A DNA stretch of 36,803 bases, taken from the NCBI GenBank assembly GCA_038243585.1, contig JBBSQY010000034.1:1-36803 (forward strand), read 5' to 3'. Origin of the DNA: Candidatus Sumerlaeales bacterium (GTDB lineage Bacteria > Sumerlaeota > Sumerlaeia > Sumerlaeales > Sumerlaeaceae). The translations under genes and the position numbers were made by a program. The stretch's first letter is position 1. Each line of letters starts with the position of its first letter. The notes under the pieces were generated by a model. The model saw nothing but the letters and a program-made list of their open reading frames with translations, did not search any database and had not been told where the DNA came from. Positions 1,136 to 35,345 of the stretch are shown here, in pieces.

Positions 1136-2911
1136 TTAGTAGAGTTCCCAGCTCCCTACGGAGGCGGGGAGGGCTTCGTGTTTAAAGTTTTCTATGTAAA
1201 ATCCTTTGGCAAGAGCCGGATCGGTGAAATTGCTGGATACGGCTATGCCGGCGCGTCCGGATGGGCGGCTGCTATCGGTGGCGGTGGCGGCTAGCTCGCC
1301 GTCGAGGTAGTAGCGGATTTCGTCGCCTTCACACTCAATACGGAAATTGTGCCACCCATCTTCTGTGATCGTTTGGGTGGCGAAGGTCTGGATGTTGCCG
1401 GATACGATCTTACCCATAGAGAGTCGGCCGAGATCTGTGGCATAAGCCATGGCGTAGCAGTGGCCGCCGTCGTAGCTTTTAAAATCCCACATGCCTGAGC
1501 CGTTATCCCGGGCAAAGATGCCTCCAGTTTCATCGCCCGGGAATTCTCCGGGAAGATGGTCCAGGTAGATGTCGGCTTCGACTGCGTAGTTGGTGTCGCT
1601 AACATTGCCTACACTGGCAGTTTCATAGCCCGTCGTTTCGTTGGATTCCAAATGCATGACGTAGCCATCGCCGCCGGCGGGCTGTGGGGCAAAGGGGACC
1701 ACGGGATTGTATTTATACATTTCGTCCCAAAGTAGCTGACGACCGGAGACGGGGAAGGAATCGCTGGCAGGAACAAATGAGCTTAGTTTTTTGACGATCA
1801 TGAGGCTGTTGGTAACAGCGCGTTGGACTCCGCCGCTGGGTGTGTTTCGCAGGATACCGTCGGCGATCATTGTTGTGGATCCGCCTCCGTCGAGGTTTAG
1901 GGCGTCAGTGGCTCCGACGGTGTCCTTGAGAAATTCGGCCATCTCCTGGAAGTTCATGCCTACGGATACGCCGGCCTGTCGTCCGTCGATGGCGACGAGG
2001 AAGATATGGGTGGCGTTCCATGCGACGGCGGTCCGGGGCTCGCGCACAGTGCTTGTGCTATGGTTGACCCAGTTAGCGTTATTGATGTCGCCTTTGTCTA
2101 ACAGCCAGCCGCGGCCGGTTATCATGAGGGCGGAGTTGCTGCCGTTGCTGTGATTAATATCCATGCGAACCTCGAGGCGGTCGCCTATGGATACCTTGTT
2201 CAGAAGTTGGGTGGCTTTGGCGTCACGGGCAGAAAGAACAATTTGATCGGCAGCGATGGGGTTGTTTTTGGAGGCCTCGCCGGTGTGTATGGCGGTGACG
2301 ACGCCGGAAACCCATTTGTCTGCCCGGGCGGGGTGATTAACGCCGCTGAGAACGATTTCCACACCAGAGAATGATGTGCGTGTGCCTGATCCCCAATGGG
2401 GCGTGTACATGGCCAGGGTGTCGGCGTTGCGGGTGTCGTTCCAATGATCGATGGGCATGGTGGTTCCGTCGGGAAAGCGTAGTTCCTGTGAAACGGTGCG
2501 GAGGCTGCGGATGATGCGCGGAACGCGGGCATCGGTGAGGAAGAATGTTTCGCGGCTGCCGCCGGGGCCCTGGATGACTTCGTTTTCGCTGCCGACGGCG
2601 TCGTAGATCTGGATGCCGGTGTAATCGAAGAAGCTGCCGTTGACCGCGCCGATAACGTCGAAATCTGGTGGTAAATCGTAGGTGGCTGCAATGGTTTGAA
2701 CGTTCTGACGGGATGTGAAATTACGGGTCTTCTGGGGGAACCCCATGTGTATCATAAGGTCGGGGTTGGAGCGATCCATCTTTAGCACATGAACCTGATT
2801 TGGGTGAACGGTGGTGTAGTTTAAAAACTCTACTCCGTTGGTTAAGGCTTCGGCGTGTAGTAGCCCGCAGTTGGCGATCATAAGAAGCGACATCAGTCGA
2901 AAAAGTTTCAA
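1136..2911 (-). CDS. Secreted phosphodiester glycosidase (NAGPA/DUF2233 family) with C-terminal beta-sandwich domain and VxxWxxY tail
   Basis: Signal peptide (..LLHA-EA). Motifs AVNGSFF, PRTAV, IDGRQ, ALNLDGGGSTTM and RAVTNSL are typical of the NAGPA family. WHNFRIECEGDEIRYYLDG suggests a LamG/DUF1080-like domain. Ends ASVGSWELY. TTG start. Confidence 0.85.
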   Translation of the reverse strand: MKLFRLMSLLMIANCGLLHAEALTNGVEFLNYTTVHPNQVHVLKMDRSNPDLMIHMGFPQKTRNFTSRQNVQTIAATYDLPPDFDVIGAVNGSFFDYTGIQIYDAVGSENEVIQGPGGSRETFFLTDARVPRIIRSLRTVSQELRFPDGTTMPIDHWNDTRNADTLAMYTPHWGSGTRTSFSGVEIVLSGVNHPARADKWVSGVVTAIHTGEASKNNPIAADQIVLSARDAKATQLLNKVSIGDRLEVRMDINHSNGSNSALMITGRGWLLDKGDINNANWVNHSTSTVREPRTAVAWNATHIFLVAIDGRQAGVSVGMNFQEMAEFLKDTVGATDALNLDGGGSTTMIADGILRNTPSGGVQRAVTNSLMIVKKLSSFVPASDSFPVSGRQLLWDEMYKYNPVVPFAPQPAGGDGYVMHLESNETTGYETASVGNVSDTNYAVEADIYLDHLPGEFPGDETGGIFARDNGSGMWDFKSYDGGHCYAMAYATDLGRLSMGKIVSGNIQTFATQTITEDGWHNFRIECEGDEIRYYLDGELAATATDSSRPSGRAGIAVSSNFTDPALAKGFYIENFKHEALPASVGSWELY

Positions 2912-6270: not shown

Positions 6271-8934
6271 TTATGGCAGATAACCACCATCGTCTATCGT
6301 TGGAATTTCCCCTAATAACAACGCCTGGAGACGCACGCGGGCACGGTTTGGGGGAGCCCAAGGAATTACCAGGGTCGGCGATAACCGAAGCGATGCCGGT
6401 TGAGAGATGGCATTGACTCCGAAGGTTATATCGCGATAGGACTGGAGGTCGACGCCTGGGCCCGGTTCATCGAAGAATGGCCCGGTATCTCCTGGCGTAT
6501 CGCGGCGAATGTCTGGGTCCAGCGGGCTTGGCAGCATCATGACATAAGCTCCGCCGTTTTCACCGGGCGGAAAAGGGTAATCAACCAGAAACAGATTTTT
6601 GGAATCTTTTCCCGGCAGAGCTTCTTCCAGAATTCGCCGAGCCGCCGACCCTTCGGCCGCCGCCAGGTTTGCAGGTCCGGCGAGTTCCAGTCGGCTGGTT
6701 ATTACGCCGCCACCGGTTTGCATCTGAAAGCTCATTCCGCCCTGGACGGGCTGTCCGGGCGTTGACGCCACTGCCGGCATATCCGAAGATGCTATAAATA
6801 TAGCGAGATATGACTTGCCTGGTTCAACACGAGGCGCGCTGGTGAAGCTGTCGGCGCCAAAGGAAAACAGTCCGACTCCGGCCTTGTCCGCCGGGGTATT
6901 TAAGGTATCAAGTATGGTCCCATTGTCGTCCATAGTTTCAAATACCTGTGGCAGAAGCGATGCGGAGACTTCTCCTCCAAGGTCTAGGGCCTGTCGGCGC
7001 CCTGCCTGAAAATCGGCCTCTATGTTGAAAGCACCAGGGACCGCCAAGGTATCTATAGTCAGACCATGATTGCTTGTGTAGGTGAAAAAGTCGGCGTCAC
7101 TCGCGTAAGCATATGGATTGGTGGCTGATACTGAGACTTGCGTATATGTAGCAAGCTGGACTTCCGTGAGTGCGAGAGTTCCGTTTGCGGGATCCTCCGT
7201 TGAAAATGCCTCAAAAGACGCGCCTATGCGTGATCCGAAGGCCGCATCCACAATCACCGGACAAAGATCAATCCGATAAAGAGAAGGTAGCGCTGCGTTT
7301 GAGCTGGGGCGCATGGAAGGTCCGACGCGAGCTTCCAAAGATGCATTGTTGGTGGTTCCATAGTATTGCTCATGAGGAACCCCGGTACGTCCGGTGGTTG
7401 CAAACTGGTAGGCTGTAGACGAGATCACGGATCCTTCATTATCTAGACGCAGGCGAAAGTTTGGAACAGTATTAAGCGGCGCGGAAGCAAGATTAGAGGT
7501 ATGGATGTAGAACTTGCCCCGGACAAATAATATATTATCGACGATGGAGGGAAGAGTCATCAGGTTTGAATTGCTCCATCCTGCGATGCGATTGCGCCCG
7601 GGGCTCGGACGCACTGTTACCCGCAACTCATTTGGAACCGCTTCTATATCAATATCATCCGGGGATGAAGGATCAATCCCATACTCAGGACCGCTGTCTA
7701 CGCCCGACGGCACCCAGGCTGGATTCGAGCCAAGGTCTGACTCCTGGTAGGTATCCGCCAACACTGGAAGAGATCCCATGGAAAAAGAAGACGTTCCGTA
7801 GGATTGATCAAGCTTTGTGGCCGAGGCAGAAAAATACATTTCATATTGGTCTGGCAAAGTGTCTGGAAAAGATTTGTCGATAGACGCGGCGCTGAAATTG
7901 TTTGTGGTGACAGTGAGCAGCCCTACAAGGTATTGCGCGTGGCCAGAGCCAGTTGGTGACTTTTTCGGTCCGGCGACAACTTCTATCAGGAACTCTGTCA
8001 GAGGGTCTCCGTAGCTGTTAAGTTCGCCTGTAATATGTATAGAACCGTTGGTACGGGTGACCGTAATCTGTTCTGGCGCTCTCTGTCCGGATTCGAAATA
8101 ATTGGTGCTGTTGTCCATTCCATGATCAATGGCCAACTCGCCTATATTAAAGATTCGGTTGTTTATGATTACAGTATCTTCAGACTCCAGCAGAGCTACG
8201 CCGTCGTCTCCGCAGTTGGCGATAACATTTCCAGTGCCTCCTAAACCAGGTCCTATATAAGTTCTCGTAGTACCGTAGAGTTCAATACCTGATCCCACGC
8301 AAGGCAGGACTCTAACCCCGGAGAAGCCTGTCCCAATTGCGCAATCCTCTATTTTGGTGTTTATGGAATCAATTACTAAAATGCCGGTTTTCTGGTAGCC
8401 GATCAGACACTTTTTAATAAGATTTCCTGTTTTAGGGCCGCCCGGATATCCGATAAAGATGCCCGTTGCCCCGGAAGTAGGCGTGAAGGTTGAGTTTACG
8501 CCAATCCAACAATTTTCGACGACGCAATTGCTGCCCCATATCTTTACATGAACGTCGGTAATATTTTCCGTCAGTGCAAGGCTGCGTAGCTGGATGTTGT
8601 CTCCACTTAAGACAAACGTACCCGATTTATCGATGCCCGCAAGCTTAATAGATATTAGCGGGGTTCCGGAAAAACCGGGCTGGCTTGAACCATCGATAAT
8701 AATGGGTTGGCCGAGAAATGTCCGGCCGGGCAGATAAACATCTACCGGCCCGCTTCCTATAGAGAACCTTATGGTATCGAGGCCCGGATTAATACTAGCC
8801 TGTTGGGTAGCCCAGTACAGGGTGCCGGTTGAGCTAGTGGCGGCGGGGCTTGTTACCGTATAAATGGCCGCCGAAACGGATGCCGGCAGGCAAATCGCTA
8901 AAAGTCCGGCGAACAAGATCGAGCTGTTTCTCAT
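6271..8934 (-). CDS. Large secreted protein: N-terminal right-handed parallel beta-helix region plus unassigned C-terminal domains
   Basis: GGGAG RBS before ATG 8934 (MRNSSILF..VSA-A). GTLYWA..DTIRFSI..IIDGSSQPG..IG..GNVIAN..GV..N.I..LAID pattern typical of surface beta-helix proteins. Confidence 0.7.
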   Translation of the reverse strand: MRNSSILFAGLLAICLPASVSAAIYTVTSPAATSSTGTLYWATQQASINPGLDTIRFSIGSGPVDVYLPGRTFLGQPIIIDGSSQPGFSGTPLISIKLAGIDKSGTFVLSGDNIQLRSLALTENITDVHVKIWGSNCVVENCWIGVNSTFTPTSGATGIFIGYPGGPKTGNLIKKCLIGYQKTGILVIDSINTKIEDCAIGTGFSGVRVLPCVGSGIELYGTTRTYIGPGLGGTGNVIANCGDDGVALLESEDTVIINNRIFNIGELAIDHGMDNSTNYFESGQRAPEQITVTRTNGSIHITGELNSYGDPLTEFLIEVVAGPKKSPTGSGHAQYLVGLLTVTTNNFSAASIDKSFPDTLPDQYEMYFSASATKLDQSYGTSSFSMGSLPVLADTYQESDLGSNPAWVPSGVDSGPEYGIDPSSPDDIDIEAVPNELRVTVRPSPGRNRIAGWSNSNLMTLPSIVDNILFVRGKFYIHTSNLASAPLNTVPNFRLRLDNEGSVISSTAYQFATTGRTGVPHEQYYGTTNNASLEARVGPSMRPSSNAALPSLYRIDLCPVIVDAAFGSRIGASFEAFSTEDPANGTLALTEVQLATYTQVSVSATNPYAYASDADFFTYTSNHGLTIDTLAVPGAFNIEADFQAGRRQALDLGGEVSASLLPQVFETMDDNGTILDTLNTPADKAGVGLFSFGADSFTSAPRVEPGKSYLAIFIASSDMPAVASTPGQPVQGGMSFQMQTGGGVITSRLELAGPANLAAAEGSAARRILEEALPGKDSKNLFLVDYPFPPGENGGAYVMMLPSPLDPDIRRDTPGDTGPFFDEPGPGVDLQSYRDITFGVNAISQPASLRLSPTLVIPWAPPNRARVRLQALLLGEIPTIDDGGYLP

Positions 8935-9380
8935 GGTATATCTCCCAGGCAAGCAATGATTTCGTGTTGATTGTCCCGGACGCAAAGCGAGGGGGGCGTG
9001 ACGCTATAAAGGCCATTGGGTTTTTGGCAGGCGGATTTGGGTGTTAGGCCGACCAGATTGCCTATTTGATATCAGTTCAATGGACTAATATAAATGCCCG
9101 CCTGAGGCGCGGATGGAAGTCAAACAAAAAAAACAGCCGTTTGATTTTTAGTGGAAAGTTACGCAATGCAACAGAAAAAAACAACTAATCGAATGTGAAT
9201 GATTAATGGTGTAAGATTCTGCTTTTTACTGGGTCTGTTGTTGGATAATGTCTCGTGTATCATACGGTGGACGTGCATGTTGTACGGGCGCGGGTTGGGC
9301 CCTGGTCCCTGGATTTGGGACTCTTGGCATCGGATGGCTAAGGATTGTTTTCGTATCGCCATCGTGGATTTGGACCACAC

Positions 9381-31482: not shown

Positions 31483-32259
31483 CTAATAGAGAGTCCAGTT
31501 CGCTACGCTCGACATCGTTTCGTACTCGATGGCAAGTTGTGGCCTGAGGCCGCTTACGCTGCTGTCGGCCTCGCTGGAATAGTAGCGTTTCGCGGTTTGG
31601 GTTGCCGACTCATTTCCCAGCAGCGCCCATCCGTGATTGGTAGCCGGGTTATCCACAAAGGCTTGTATGTCGTTGATCAGCCCGACTCCTGAAAACCGCA
31701 CGAAAGTTCCCGCCTCGCCCGCGATCGCAGCGGCGGAAATGCCCGGCGCGAATTCGCCCCCCGGCGCGTTCCAGACCACCGCGCTGTAGCTTTCGTGGGA
31801 CCACGTTGAATCTCCGGTTTGCGCGGGTGCGCCCTGGCCGACGGTTTGTGAATCAACCAGCGGGTTGGATCCTTCGTTCCATGCTCGCGTCGCGCGGTGA
31901 AGATTGTTCAAGGTGTTTCCAGAGTTGTCAAATTCCAGATAGATTTGAAGCGTTACGCTGGTTATCGTTGCGTTTGACGGAACCACGTTTTGCAGATCGA
32001 ATTTTAAAAGAGAACGCCGCGCCGCATTGAACCTGGTTTTTCCGGCAAACAGATATGGAAAACCACCTGCGGAGTTTGCGGTATAGTCTTGGAAAAGCGT
32101 GGTGTCTTCCGTGCCGGAATACCCATTCAGGCCCTGCCTTAACACCACAGCTGTTTCGGCAGAGACCTGTGATTCCACTGCCCAGGAACCCGCAAACACC
32201 AACACCGCAGCGACCCAGCGGTAATGCGGAATCTTTCTCAAAGGATACCGACTGTTCAC
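31483..32259 (-). CDS. Secreted DNRLRE-domain protein with VxxWxxY tail
   Basis: Signal peptide (..QVSA-E). DTTL..RSLLKFDL..ITSVTL..WNEG..TW..NHGW..SSE..RPQLAIEY, then TMSSVANWTLY. GTG start overlaps the upstream TGA. Confidence 0.85.
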   Translation of the reverse strand: MNSRYPLRKIPHYRWVAAVLVFAGSWAVESQVSAETAVVLRQGLNGYSGTEDTTLFQDYTANSAGGFPYLFAGKTRFNAARRSLLKFDLQNVVPSNATITSVTLQIYLEFDNSGNTLNNLHRATRAWNEGSNPLVDSQTVGQGAPAQTGDSTWSHESYSAVVWNAPGGEFAPGISAAAIAGEAGTFVRFSGVGLINDIQAFVDNPATNHGWALLGNESATQTAKRYYSSEADSSVSGLRPQLAIEYETMSSVANWTLY

Positions 32260-33596
32260 CCGTATTGATTCCAGCCCTTTACGGCGGAGCTTCCCTTTAT
32301 AAATTGCAGGTCGCCCATTTGCGGTGCGATAATGCTGTCATAGGTCGGCTGGCCGAACACCGGCGCAGCCGAACCACCAAACCAGTTTTCAATGATGGCG
32401 CCGTATACGGATCGGAAGTCCAGCGAATGCCGCAGGTTGCCTTTGATAGGATTTGCAAGGTTTGGCTGTCCGCCAAACACGCCGCCATTGACGCCGCCGC
32501 CAAATGCAAACATGACGTTAGCCGCGCCGTGGTCCGTGCCGGAGCTTCCATTTTCGGCAATGCGCCGGCCGAACTCGGAAAATGTCAGGATCAAGACGCG
32601 ATCCAGATTGCCCGACGCCTGCATCTCGAAAAGAAACGAATCCACATTACGACTCAAATTGCCCAGCAGCTTCTGATGATCACCGGTCGCTGTGACGTCC
32701 ATGCCAGCCCCGACCTGGTTGGCGTGGGTATCGTATCCGCCCTGACTCACATAAAAAATTCGGGTGTTGAAACCCTTACGGATAATTTTGGATGCGAGCT
32801 TTAACCCGTTGCCCAGACTATCTGTGGTGTATCCGTTGGGCGCCGGGCTTTCCATCGCCTGGGCCAGGGCGATATCAGCTGATGACGCTTCCACGGTGTT
32901 TACGCTCCGCTGGAGAAAATCGATATCTGAATCCAGTGTAGGCAGGTTGTTCATCGTGTGAATCGCTGCGAGGCGATGGGTTTTATCCGCGCTGGCTTTC
33001 AGTGCATATTTTGTGGCGTCCGCAATGGCGGGGGGCACATAGTTTTGTGAGCCTGAGAGCATGTCGGGCACGGTGCTGGTACCGGTGGCCGCCATGAAAA
33101 GTGCTTCGCCATCTCCCTGCCCTGCACAGCTGTTGTCGTAAAAGCGCGAAACCCATCCCTGCGGCGGAATGGGTTGCCCCGGCACTGCGCCGGTCTCCCA
33201 GTAGTCTGTGGAGGTGAAGTGGGAGAAATCCGGGTTCACATAGCCAACGCTCTGCAAGATGGACACTTTGCCCTGCTGGTACCAATCGGCAATCTCGGCC
33301 ATTTTGGGATGAAGCCCATTAAGCCCGTCCAAGTTGATTTCCTGCCCCTGAGGAATGCGAATTGTTGGCCGGGTGAGGGCGTCGTAATAGATGGGGTCAG
33401 ATCGGGGAATCACCGTGTTCAGGCCGTCGTTACCGCCGGACTGTTGCAGGATAACCAGGATGCGGCCATTAGTCAGGCAGTTTAGAGGCAATGCGCGAGC
33501 TGCCCGCATCACCCATTTGGGGGTGGTGGCTTCCAGGGTAAAGTAGGCCAGACCGGATAAGCCGACCTTGAGAAACTGGCGTCTGTTCATGCTCAT
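32256..33596 (-). CDS. DUF1501-family protein with Tat signal and VxxWxxY(G) tail
   Basis: MNRRQFLK, GGNDGLNTVIP, SHF, GGYDTHANQ, SEFGRR..EN..GTDHG and DFRSVY. Ends GSSAVKGWNQYG. Confidence 0.92.
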   Translation of the reverse strand: MSMNRRQFLKVGLSGLAYFTLEATTPKWVMRAARALPLNCLTNGRILVILQQSGGNDGLNTVIPRSDPIYYDALTRPTIRIPQGQEINLDGLNGLHPKMAEIADWYQQGKVSILQSVGYVNPDFSHFTSTDYWETGAVPGQPIPPQGWVSRFYDNSCAGQGDGEALFMAATGTSTVPDMLSGSQNYVPPAIADATKYALKASADKTHRLAAIHTMNNLPTLDSDIDFLQRSVNTVEASSADIALAQAMESPAPNGYTTDSLGNGLKLASKIIRKGFNTRIFYVSQGGYDTHANQVGAGMDVTATGDHQKLLGNLSRNVDSFLFEMQASGNLDRVLILTFSEFGRRIAENGSSGTDHGAANVMFAFGGGVNGGVFGGQPNLANPIKGNLRHSLDFRSVYGAIIENWFGGSAAPVFGQPTYDSIIAPQMGDLQFIKGSSAVKGWNQYG

Positions 33597-35170
33597 TTTA
33601 GCTGATACCTCGGCATGGTCATGGTTAGATGAAGGGCGGCGCGCACTTTGCGGCGAAAGATGGAAAAGGTTGTGGTGGACGTACCCTTGATGTTGCTGAA
33701 CAACTGCGTAAACACATCAGTTTCTTCCGCAGTCGGGGTGTCTAGAAGTAGACGAGATGTAAAGTATTGTATAATTCCCGCGTTGTCGTCAATGTTCGCG
33801 ATCATGCCGCTGTTAAGAAGGCCGTCAATTTTGGCATCGGACAGGATGGATGTGCTGCTGATGCGATCTGCATAATTAAATCGCGCGATAAGACTGCTGG
33901 AGTTTACCCAGCTTCTCCCGTGGTGCCAGCCTTCCACGGTCGGCGGCTCAAACAGGCGCATGCCCATCTCGCGAAGGTTATAGGCCGCTATCGCCGAGTA
34001 TCTCGGCTCATCCAGTTCCAGGTTTCTGAGAGCTGAAACCAGATAGTCTGCAGGGTGTTTATAAACTTTATACCGATTTGCCTGGTCGTAGAAGAATTGG
34101 CTCTTAAGCAACTTTCGCAACGCTTCTCGCACATTGTAAGTATAGCCGCCGCCGGCAGTGTTTGTGGAAAAGAACGCCGCAAGCTCGACAACTGCCGCGT
34201 GATCGATTTTGATAGATTCGTTAACGAACCAGTTTATAAATTTCCAGGACATGTAAAGGGCTGTGGCCGGATAAACGCTGTGGGCAGGGGAAATGGCGCT
34301 ATGAGAGACGCGCTCAAGTATTAGATCGATGACCTTTTCCGTGTCTTCGCCGTAAAGTCCAACGTTAAAGGTAACAGTGAAGAGCGTCTTCGGATCTCTG
34401 TCGTGCTGATTTGTATCATAGAAATAATCGTAGGGCCAGTTTAGCTGGCAGGTATTTCTGATGGTTTCACCGGTGAAAGCCCTGGCTGCGTTGCGGACAT
34501 CTTCTTCGCTGTAATTGCCCACGCCCATGGAAAACAGTTCCATGATTTCCCGGCCGTAATTCTCCTGCGGCTTCCCTTTTTTGTTCAGGCGATTATCCAG
34601 ATAGATGAGCATGCAGGGGTCGCGGGTGATTTTTATCAGGAGTTCTCGAAAGCTTCCATGACCGTGTTGCAGAAACAGGTTCTGCTGATCGCGAAAGAGT
34701 CGCGCGATGACCTTGCGTTCTCCGTATGCATCGGGCGGTAGTCCACTTGCGCCCATGTTACAGGCTTGACCGGAGGTGGTGCCGTCGTTTCCGTCATTAA
34801 TGGAGTTTGTTACGTTGGATTGAATCTTGCCGTATTCGCTCACGAAATGGTCGTGGAGAAACAACGCAAACTGCTGCTGCATCGGCTGGGTGCTATGAAC
34901 CATCCGGTACAGCCAACAGCCTTCCAATTCATTGGCATTCATCGGGGATTTTATTTTGTCGTTGTCAGCGTTTGCAGGCAAATCCACGATTGAATCATCG
35001 AGGGGCTGATCCACGGGCAGGTAATTAACAATGGAATCAACCGCACCTGACATCCCTGAAACGACAAGAGACGCCAACTTGTCAGGAGTCGCGCCAAACG
35101 TGGTTCTGCGCGAAAGATGAGCCGCCTCAGACAAGGTCCAAATGCCGGCATACGGGTCGAGCAAAGCCAT
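33593..35170 (-). CDS. DUF1800-family protein
   Basis: AAHLSRRTTFG, LFLHDHF, MLIYLDN, ENYGREIMELFSMG, YSEEDV..AARAFTG and PPTVEGW. Start placed at ATG 35170. ATGA overlap with the DUF1501 gene. Confidence 0.92.
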   Translation of the reverse strand: MALLDPYAGIWTLSEAAHLSRRTTFGATPDKLASLVVSGMSGAVDSIVNYLPVDQPLDDSIVDLPANADNDKIKSPMNANELEGCWLYRMVHSTQPMQQQFALFLHDHFVSEYGKIQSNVTNSINDGNDGTTSGQACNMGASGLPPDAYGERKVIARLFRDQQNLFLQHGHGSFRELLIKITRDPCMLIYLDNRLNKKGKPQENYGREIMELFSMGVGNYSEEDVRNAARAFTGETIRNTCQLNWPYDYFYDTNQHDRDPKTLFTVTFNVGLYGEDTEKVIDLILERVSHSAISPAHSVYPATALYMSWKFINWFVNESIKIDHAAVVELAAFFSTNTAGGGYTYNVREALRKLLKSQFFYDQANRYKVYKHPADYLVSALRNLELDEPRYSAIAAYNLREMGMRLFEPPTVEGWHHGRSWVNSSSLIARFNYADRISSTSILSDAKIDGLLNSGMIANIDDNAGIIQYFTSRLLLDTPTAEETDVFTQLFSNIKGTSTTTFSIFRRKVRAALHLTMTMPRYQLK

Positions 35171-35345
35171 TGTTCCAACGCCTTCACATAAGTAATACGG
35201 GCCAGGCTCGACAAATAAAAAGATCGCGCAGCCGATTATGCAAGTATGTAACAATCGGAATTGGATGAGTCAACGATTAAAGCCTGTTACAGGGCACCCA
35301 GTGGAAATTACGAATTAGCGGCAAAGGGACAAGCTGTAGAACTCT

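Follow-up and report, generated by a model that had tools for sequence, protein, structure and literature searches.

We describe a short C-terminal tail shared by dozens of otherwise unrelated exported proteins in the genome of a Candidatus Sumerlaeales bacterium (assembly GCA_038243585.1, G000 below; 3.43 Mb, 99 contigs, 89.7% complete), and conclude that it is very probably a tag for sorting or docking, in one form or another. The tag has the consensus [STA]-[ASDG]-[VAI]-x-[DGNE]-W-x-[LIV]-[YF], usually followed by 0 or 1 residue and the stop codon. It was noticed in a stretch of 36,803 nucleotides (the window; positions 1 to 36,803 of contig JBBSQY010000034.1), and the contig holds exactly three tagged proteins. 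The original prediction, made from the letters alone, had named three tails and placed their carriers in the NAGPA, DNRLRE and DUF1501 families; we found all three tails where it had put them, on the minus strand, and domain models PF09992, NF033679 and PF07394 confirmed the families. The features are as follows, with tag scores from a position-specific scoring matrix (PSSM).

1136-1165, minus strand: tag copy 1, ASVGSWELY-stop (PSSM 21.5), at the end of the NAGPA-family protein.
1136-2911, minus strand: tagged cargo of 591 aa, a NAGPA phosphodiester glycosidase (PF09992) with a ConA-like domain and a Sec-type signal peptide (heuristic).
31483-31512, minus strand: tag copy 2, SSVANWTLY-stop (PSSM 26.2), after the end of the DNRLRE domain.
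31483-32259, minus strand: tagged cargo of 258 aa, DNRLRE/CBM96-like (NF033679), with a Sec-type signal peptide (heuristic).
32256-32291, minus strand: tag copy 3, SSAVKGWNQYG-stop (PSSM 19.1), at the end of the DUF1501 protein.
32256-33596, minus strand: tagged cargo of 446 aa, DUF1501 (PF07394), with a twin-arginine signal (TAT_signal match below cut-off).
33593-35254, minus strand: untagged DUF1800 gene, the first of a DUF1800-DUF1501-DNRLRE run with 4-nt overlaps, given for context.

Genome-wide counts were made over 2575 mechanically called open reading frames (ORFs) of at least 100 aa, with 3289 overlapping shadow ORFs as the control. A look for 16S rRNA in G000 came up empty. The expression [VIL]xxWxx[YF]x{0,2}$ matches the ends of 61 of the 2575 ORFs, where about 0.5 would be expected per end offset, and of 2 of the 3289 shadow ORFs. 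The expression put forward with the original prediction gives 19 and 0, respectively. By PSSM, 75 ORFs (about 3% of proteins) score 14 or more, a count that is circular for these tails because the matrix was trained on them; the gap below them is wide, with all 75 at 15.5 or above, the next ORF at 10.9, and only 80 ORFs reaching 6. No shadow ORF scores 8 or more, and a score of 12 is reached at 2 of 940,311 internal positions. The Trp and the Tyr or Phe three residues after it are present in 75 of 75 tags, and the position five before the Trp (W-5) is Ser, Thr, Ala or Asn in all 75. The aromatic residue is followed by 0–2 others: 46 tails stop at it, 29 at +1 and 1 at +2. Two extra copies with 4–5 additional residues bring the total to about 77 tagged proteins, well beyond the mere handful that had been envisaged as the outcome fatal to the idea. 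The tag is real, and far above chance.

Its carriers are exported proteins. In a crude Sec/Tat test, an export signal with no later transmembrane (TM) helix was found in 61 of 72 complete tagged proteins and in 630 of 2167 untagged ones (P = 8e-22), so the enrichment that the original prediction had proposed to test for is seen with this heuristic; among the 11 tagged proteins that fail it, 7 look by eye as if they have signal peptides and 4 seem truncated or mis-started. Nor is the tail as common on cytoplasmic proteins: none of the 121 Walker-A proteins carries it, and a TM helix further along is present in just 1 of the 76 tagged proteins. A lipobox occurs in 1 of 72. Both Sec and Tat signals are found among the cargo, which fits export of folded proteins. 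A Pfam scan of 13 further tagged proteins gave LTD, metalloprotease, amidase, FAD-oxidoreductase, BNR, FG-GAP, nuclease and ConA-like matches, and none for four. Pfam and NCBIfam scans of tagged proteins found no model covering the tail, in line with the earlier view that it fits none of the familiar sorting systems, and an ESM Atlas search with the tail returned only matches below 0.9, to unnamed short proteins. In the AlphaFold model of one cargo the fold stops at residue 265, with no secondary structure beyond it and a pLDDT (the model's per-residue confidence) of 56 for the last block, so the tail lies outside the cargo fold.

The DUF1501 family shows what else can stand in the tag's place. 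We took the 120 best matches to the window protein, query included, and classed what follows the DUF1501 core by regular expressions (a few assignments are borderline). A W-tail stands there in 46 of them and a dockerin-like domain in 33; TM-plus-basic and Gly/Cys tails account for 3 each, and the remaining 35 have no tail or some other ending. Where labels are present, the W-tailed proteins are from Sumerlaeota or simply "bacterium", those with dockerin or TM tails are from Hydrogenedentes, and the tail-less ones are mostly from Planctomycetota. Because the same slot holds the tag, a dockerin, a membrane or Cys tail, or nothing, the tag appears as a swappable module, and this swap is the best evidence, on comparison of sequences, that the tail may do the job of a sorting or anchoring module. 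Together with the modelled fold, it also speaks against an ordinary conserved terminal strand, which the original prediction had kept in view. In a midpoint-rooted FastTree phylogeny of 115 of the 120 cores, tail-less clades sit within W-tailed ones and some retain half a tag. One such clade (P0197, P0199, P0200, P0204, P0205 and P0238; support 1.0), with planctomycete-labelled members among it, is nested among W-tailed sequences, and part of it ends in a half tag, for example ASVKG-stop.

Seven other DUF1501 orthologs (P0240, P0242 and P0249; P0216, P0221, P0245 and P0246) end in a Gly-rich linker with GC-x(1-3)-stop or in a short TM helix with a basic tail. An NCBIfam scan of six of the seven gave no match, and these Gly/Cys and TM-plus-basic tails are possibly further uncatalogued sorting signals. 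Dockerin-like and W-tail endings can also occur side by side: in genomes of the Sumerlaeota family f2 (L024, L030, L039 and L040), exported proteins with dockerin-like ends, and one that ends IPVELSAFSAD-stop, are found beside W-tails.

The tag extends through the phylum Sumerlaeota and into at least a second phylum. The DNA pattern [VA]x[DE]WxL[YF]-stop, whose stop term also admits TGG, matched 65 of 75 Sumerlaeota genomes (reversed control 0–3), strongly in some families and at background level in families f2-f8. The latter carry a variant, roughly [AV]-R-[RDNH]-W-x-L-Y-[RE] (control 0–4). With both patterns summed, 70 of the 75 genomes have at least 4 matches (median 13), the lowest of these being near control level. 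Phylogenetic profiling within the phylum was therefore abandoned: f2-f8 are tag-negative by the first pattern only, and no tag-less family is left. A GTDB-wide scan found at least 116 loci. Among the 80 titled matches listed, 39 end a long frame (19 from Sumerlaeota/BRC1, 18 from "bacterium" and 2 from "Omnitrophota"), and the other 41 are from named unrelated taxa, in frames of at most 54 residues. These labels fit the link to Sumerlaeota (BRC1) suggested in the original prediction. Most of the unlabelled genomes belong to the second phylum, in which 35 of 35 genomes have a match and 28 have at least 10 (control 0–3). It is probably Hinthialibacterota (OLB16), a group formerly filed under Omnitrophota according to the available part of PMC9324843. 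The original prediction took the tag for a lineage-specific signal; it is not confined to one lineage, since another phylum carries it throughout.

Some ends near the tag deserve separate mention. Weak variants (EWMLMQ-stop, AWPWYY-stop, AWPWYN-stop, or Phe in place of Trp) are found on otherwise typical cargo at G000:C12:56015-57676, C12:57824-59389, C20:45434-49330, C84:5578-5967, C32:11205-14921 and C15:20097-23324. In the window, an untagged 904-aa beta-helix protein (6271-8985, minus strand) shares its C-terminal 470 residues with G000:C15:13843-15879, and both end IDDGGY-x-x. We considered its end, IDDGGYLP, as a second tag and rejected it, because a whole domain is common to the protein and one paralog.

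G000 is rich in type IV filament machinery. Of its three secretins, one is GspD-like, one is PilQ-like, and the third is a 1692-aa protein with TPR repeats. Besides a full Gsp cluster and PilM-Q, it has several pilus ATPases, five K-type pilins, and some 28 GspG-like pilins that end Y-D-P-T-N-G-T. A pilin-like gene adjoins 10 of 80 tagged genes; the figures for comparison are 59 of 2455 among other genes (P = 4e-5) and 18 of 726 among export-like ones (P = 2e-4). The GspG-like Y-x-x-[TS]-N-G family is the largest cluster among the neighbours, with 25 of 388, the next having 8. Beyond G000, 9 of 42 tagged genes adjoin a pilin; in the G091 subset the figure is no more than 2 of 17. One tagged cargo family is present in 16 of the 75 genomes, G000 and 15 others, and in 12 of the 15 the pilin beside that cargo matches the same G000 paralog best, across five families. 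The pilin motif has 16–115 copies in 14 of 14 genomes of both tag phyla and 0–1 in 16 of 16 others; within Sumerlaeota, the expanded family, with the fuller end Y-D-P-T-N-G-T-x-S-x-G-D (for example L159:1326-1928), has 5–97 motif copies in 75 of 75 genomes, and in the second phylum it reaches 115. A Foldseek search with a model of such a pilin found nothing at E < 0.001, and its weak matches are pilins and GspG.

Two further elements of this machinery are worth recording. The TPR-secretin (L170:9054-14132; G000:C32:28553-33631, minus strand) is a candidate peptide reader; homologs of its middle region were found in all 5 genomes searched, which represent both tag phyla. A compact type IV filament operon at G000:C45:4030-10425 (partly L169) encodes an ATPase, two GspF proteins, the I and J components, a K pilin (about 130 aa) and a YDPTNGT pilin. 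Compact operons like it are found in G036, where a gene with a variant tail follows, and in G076.

We lean, if only by a little, towards a reading of the tag by type IV filament machinery, that is, by a type II secretion system (T2SS) or a type IV pilus. The tail would be a portable docking peptide, uncleaved or cleaved late. Cargo would cross the inner membrane by way of Sec or Tat and take up its fold in the periplasm. A pilin-type or secretin subunit would then bind the free tail, in the simplest case as a beta-strand that becomes buried in the fashion of the PilC/PilY1 tail, and the cargo would be pushed through a secretin, to be released or displayed. Here we infer export over the outer membrane, direct binding, the strand geometry and the reading subunit. 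For the subunit, the YDPTNGT pilins are a possible but rather unlikely choice, and the I/J/K tip complex is less likely again, on a par with the TPR-secretin or another part of the T2SS. A bolder version, which we hold as a tentative speculation, is that two uncultured phyla turned the strand that licenses type IV filament tips into a general linear secretion tag: some 75 folded periplasmic proteins would each supply the strand and trigger or board their own pseudopilus, with the dozens of GspG-like paralogs as cargo-matched subunits.

The model for such binding comes from PilC/PilY1, which dock at pilus tips by their last ~10 residues and so complete the sheet of PilK, a strand that GspK of the T2SS provides itself (PMC13533445, available part). 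In their docking strand a Trp is conserved and is followed at +3 by a hydrophobic residue (available part of PMC13711793), and in the export of TcpF a disordered terminal peptide is bound by a minor pilin (PMC10120004, excerpt). Comparable ends exist among the pilins themselves. Sumerlaeota K-type pilins end RWNSY-stop, YWHEY-stop and VLQWIE-stop, two of which read W-x-x-Y-stop. E. coli EtpG ends DDIGNWTL, and most of 30 Sumerlaeota GspG proteins have DD[IVL]x[NS][WFY], giving a register, [IV]-x-[ND]-W, like that of the tag. As a strand, the tag would show hydrophobic residues on both faces.

Several observations weigh against reading by a filament machine. No pilin adjoins 70 of the 80 tagged genes; tag and pilin counts are weakly correlated across the 75 related genomes (Spearman 0.25), one of which has 97 pilin matches and 4 tag matches; and co-occurrence at the level of phyla depends on two lineages that are probably related, in a sample without the Hydrogenedentota outgroup. 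By eye, the K-type pilins of G000, the four large ones and seemingly the fifth as well, supply a last strand of their own, so that an empty site of the PilC type is not evident there, and among the minimal K pilins of relatives such a strand is missing in only 3 of 17 (G026, G070 and G072). A two-sequence query found the minimal-K operon in 19 of the 75 genomes, and in neither of the single-contig tagged genomes G066 and G069. The modelled YDPTNGT pilin closes with its own strand and leaves no obvious gap. The likeness between the tag and the W-strands, judged by eye and in two different registers, is weak evidence for a common geometry. Finally, according to the portion of PMC13533445 available, the payloads of a T2SS can do without strand addition on PilK. 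Strict reading in the PilC manner is thus not established, and the expanded pilins or the TPR-secretin could read the tag instead.

Two more specific proposals were dropped. An ATPase/GspF/I/J/minimal-K/pilin operon as the universal reader was rejected on its distribution, given above. The idea that a canonical GspG without its terminal Trp forms a pocket for the tag was rejected because the Trp is present in 12 of 30 and a Phe or Tyr in 12 more. A co-fold of one cognate pilin with its tagged cargo scored 0.00 twice, which says nothing for or against binding.

The filament reading has to be weighed against others, with two of which, a surface anchor and a C25 peptidase site, it is not fully exclusive. 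The tag may hold proteins at the surface non-covalently, taking the place of a dockerin in minimal form: cargo would leave by another signal and then clip onto a scaffold, S-layer or outer-membrane receptor, and adjacency to pilins would reflect a common function in uptake or sensing modules. The 33 dockerin-like domains in the DUF1501 slot suggest this, as does cargo made up of typical surface enzymes and binders; G000 itself has no dockerin-like repeat by regular expression, and the f2 genomes have both endings. We nevertheless think an anchor improbable, since there is no scaffold family among the 388 neighbours and the resemblance to pilin terminal strands would be left unexplained. A little less probable is a site for a PorU-like C25 transpeptidase, which would cut near the small residue at W-5 and link the cargo to a surface glycan or lipid, an anchoring in the style of type IX secretion (T9SS) without a T9SS, possibly after T2SS export. 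The S/T/A/N rule at W-5 suits such a cut, and the S-S-V-x-D half of the tag is, we presume, like the start of T9SS C-terminal domains (CTDs). C25 peptidases were found in all 10 genomes tested from the two tag phyla and in 0 of 14 controls, a sample outside which the tag-less related phyla lie; the three in G000 (L173, L174 and L175) have the His and Cys motifs and signal peptides and score 160–185 bits on the PorU model. That score is far under the PorU cut-off of 420, however, and the genes neither adjoin tagged genes nor figure among their recurrent neighbours. SprA was not found in 5 genomes (the control was also silent), and PorU cleavage is sequence-independent in the account available from PMC4804311.

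A tail that is short, aromatic, at the very end of the protein and unstructured in the model could also be bound by a periplasmic chaperone, protease or retention factor of the PDZ or TPR type, acting in folding, turnover or periplasmic placement instead of export; envelope TPR proteins exist, the secretin among them. We regard this as quite unlikely. The distance from the aromatic residue to the carboxyl end varies from 0 to 2 residues and, in the two extra copies, +4/+5, a poor fit to domains that read a carboxylate, and the slot is interchangeable with surface-sorting modules. That the tail has no common function, being a remnant of gene shuffling or a part of each fold, is very improbable and already largely refuted. 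The 35 DUF1501 orthologs classed as none or other would suit it, but the Trp is invariant although the DNA and flanking residues vary, and the tag stands on dozens of unrelated folds in two phyla, outside the fold in the one cargo modelled. It is also retained in 12 of the 12 closest matches of one cargo (query included), and families f4, f7 and f8 have the lineage-wide variant x-R-[RDNH]-W-x-L-Y-[RE].

How the T2SS chooses its folded substrates is not well defined, according to the excerpt of PMC10120004. If reading by filament machinery is true, a nine-residue linear tag makes that choice testable by single mutations and peptide binding, and it could serve as a compact engineering tag. Whatever the reader, the motif flags what is likely to be the surface and secreted proteome of two phyla about which little is known (110 GTDB genomes searched). 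The DUF1501 series also points to dockerins and to TM and Cys tails as taking on the equivalent function in neighbouring lineages. The expanded family of GspG-like pilins is a finding in its own right.

The tag is apparently uncatalogued. Literature searches, with subscription journals outside their coverage, found no description of it, and the term "C-terminal" has 0 occurrences in the main texts (supplements outside scope) of three papers on these phyla, PMC8092238, PMC10866078 and PMC9324843. Among named systems, LPXTG, PEP-CTERM, GlyGly-CTERM and MYXO-CTERM signals (10.1101/2023.06.07.544157) are likewise C-terminal, multicopy and on unrelated exported proteins, and some tripartite C-terminal sorting systems require a T2SS (same source). 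Ends of that type, TM-plus-basic or Cys, occupy the tag's own slot in DUF1501 orthologs; the tag, in contrast, has no TM helix, no basic cluster and no linked sorting enzyme. The type I dockerin (PF00404) also replaces it on orthologous DUF1501 proteins, Hydrogenedentes-labelled ones included, but is a Ca-binding repeat domain of 60–70 residues with no sequence likeness. The T9SS CTD is likewise a C-terminal tag for export, borne by similar kinds of Sec cargo, and G000 has PorU-like C25 peptidases. That CTD is, however, a folded domain of about 70–80 residues as against nine, tagged proteins gave no match to a CTD model, and SprA (TIGR04189) was found in 0 of 5 genomes, a soft absence given that the control was silent too. 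The NCBIfam models NF050076 (sort_motif_YLP, the YLP-box) and NF053834 (ultrashort_CTERM) also describe very short putative sorting motifs. We rejected the YLP-box models as the tag's identity, because they matched no tag and gave 0 and 1 matches in G000, the one being in a 25-aa frame. The signal read by the beta-barrel assembly machinery (BAM) differs in that the annotated cargo here consists of soluble domains, not barrels, and 30 of 76 tags have residues past the aromatic.

Closer in kind are two signals of type IV filaments. The tail of PilC/PilY1 (and MshQ) is, like the tag, a stretch of ~10 residues at the C-terminus of Sec-exported proteins, with the conserved Trp and hydrophobic +3 and no TM helix, and its hosts, like G000, have type IV filament machines. 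It differs in serving one or two dedicated beta-propeller adhesins per cell as against about 77 unrelated proteins, and in its consensus, W-R-E-hydrophobic as against V-x-D-W-x-L-Y; the PilY1 domain PF05567 was found in 0 of 5 genomes (control silent). The TcpF/CofJ signal, as described in the part of PMC10120004 available, is also a terminal peptide that is short, disordered and portable; it has a key aromatic residue, and a pilin reads it in the export of a periplasmic protein. That signal is N-terminal, serves one cargo per system, is read by TcpB/CofB and is cleaved off, whereas our tag is C-terminal, has dozens of cargoes and is associated with GspG-like pilins. The tag lacks the defining features of tripartite CTERM signals, the T9SS CTD, the BAM signal, the TcpF signal and the YLP-box alike. 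By analogy, the PilC tail and the TcpF signal come nearest to the way it would work, and it is a member of neither.

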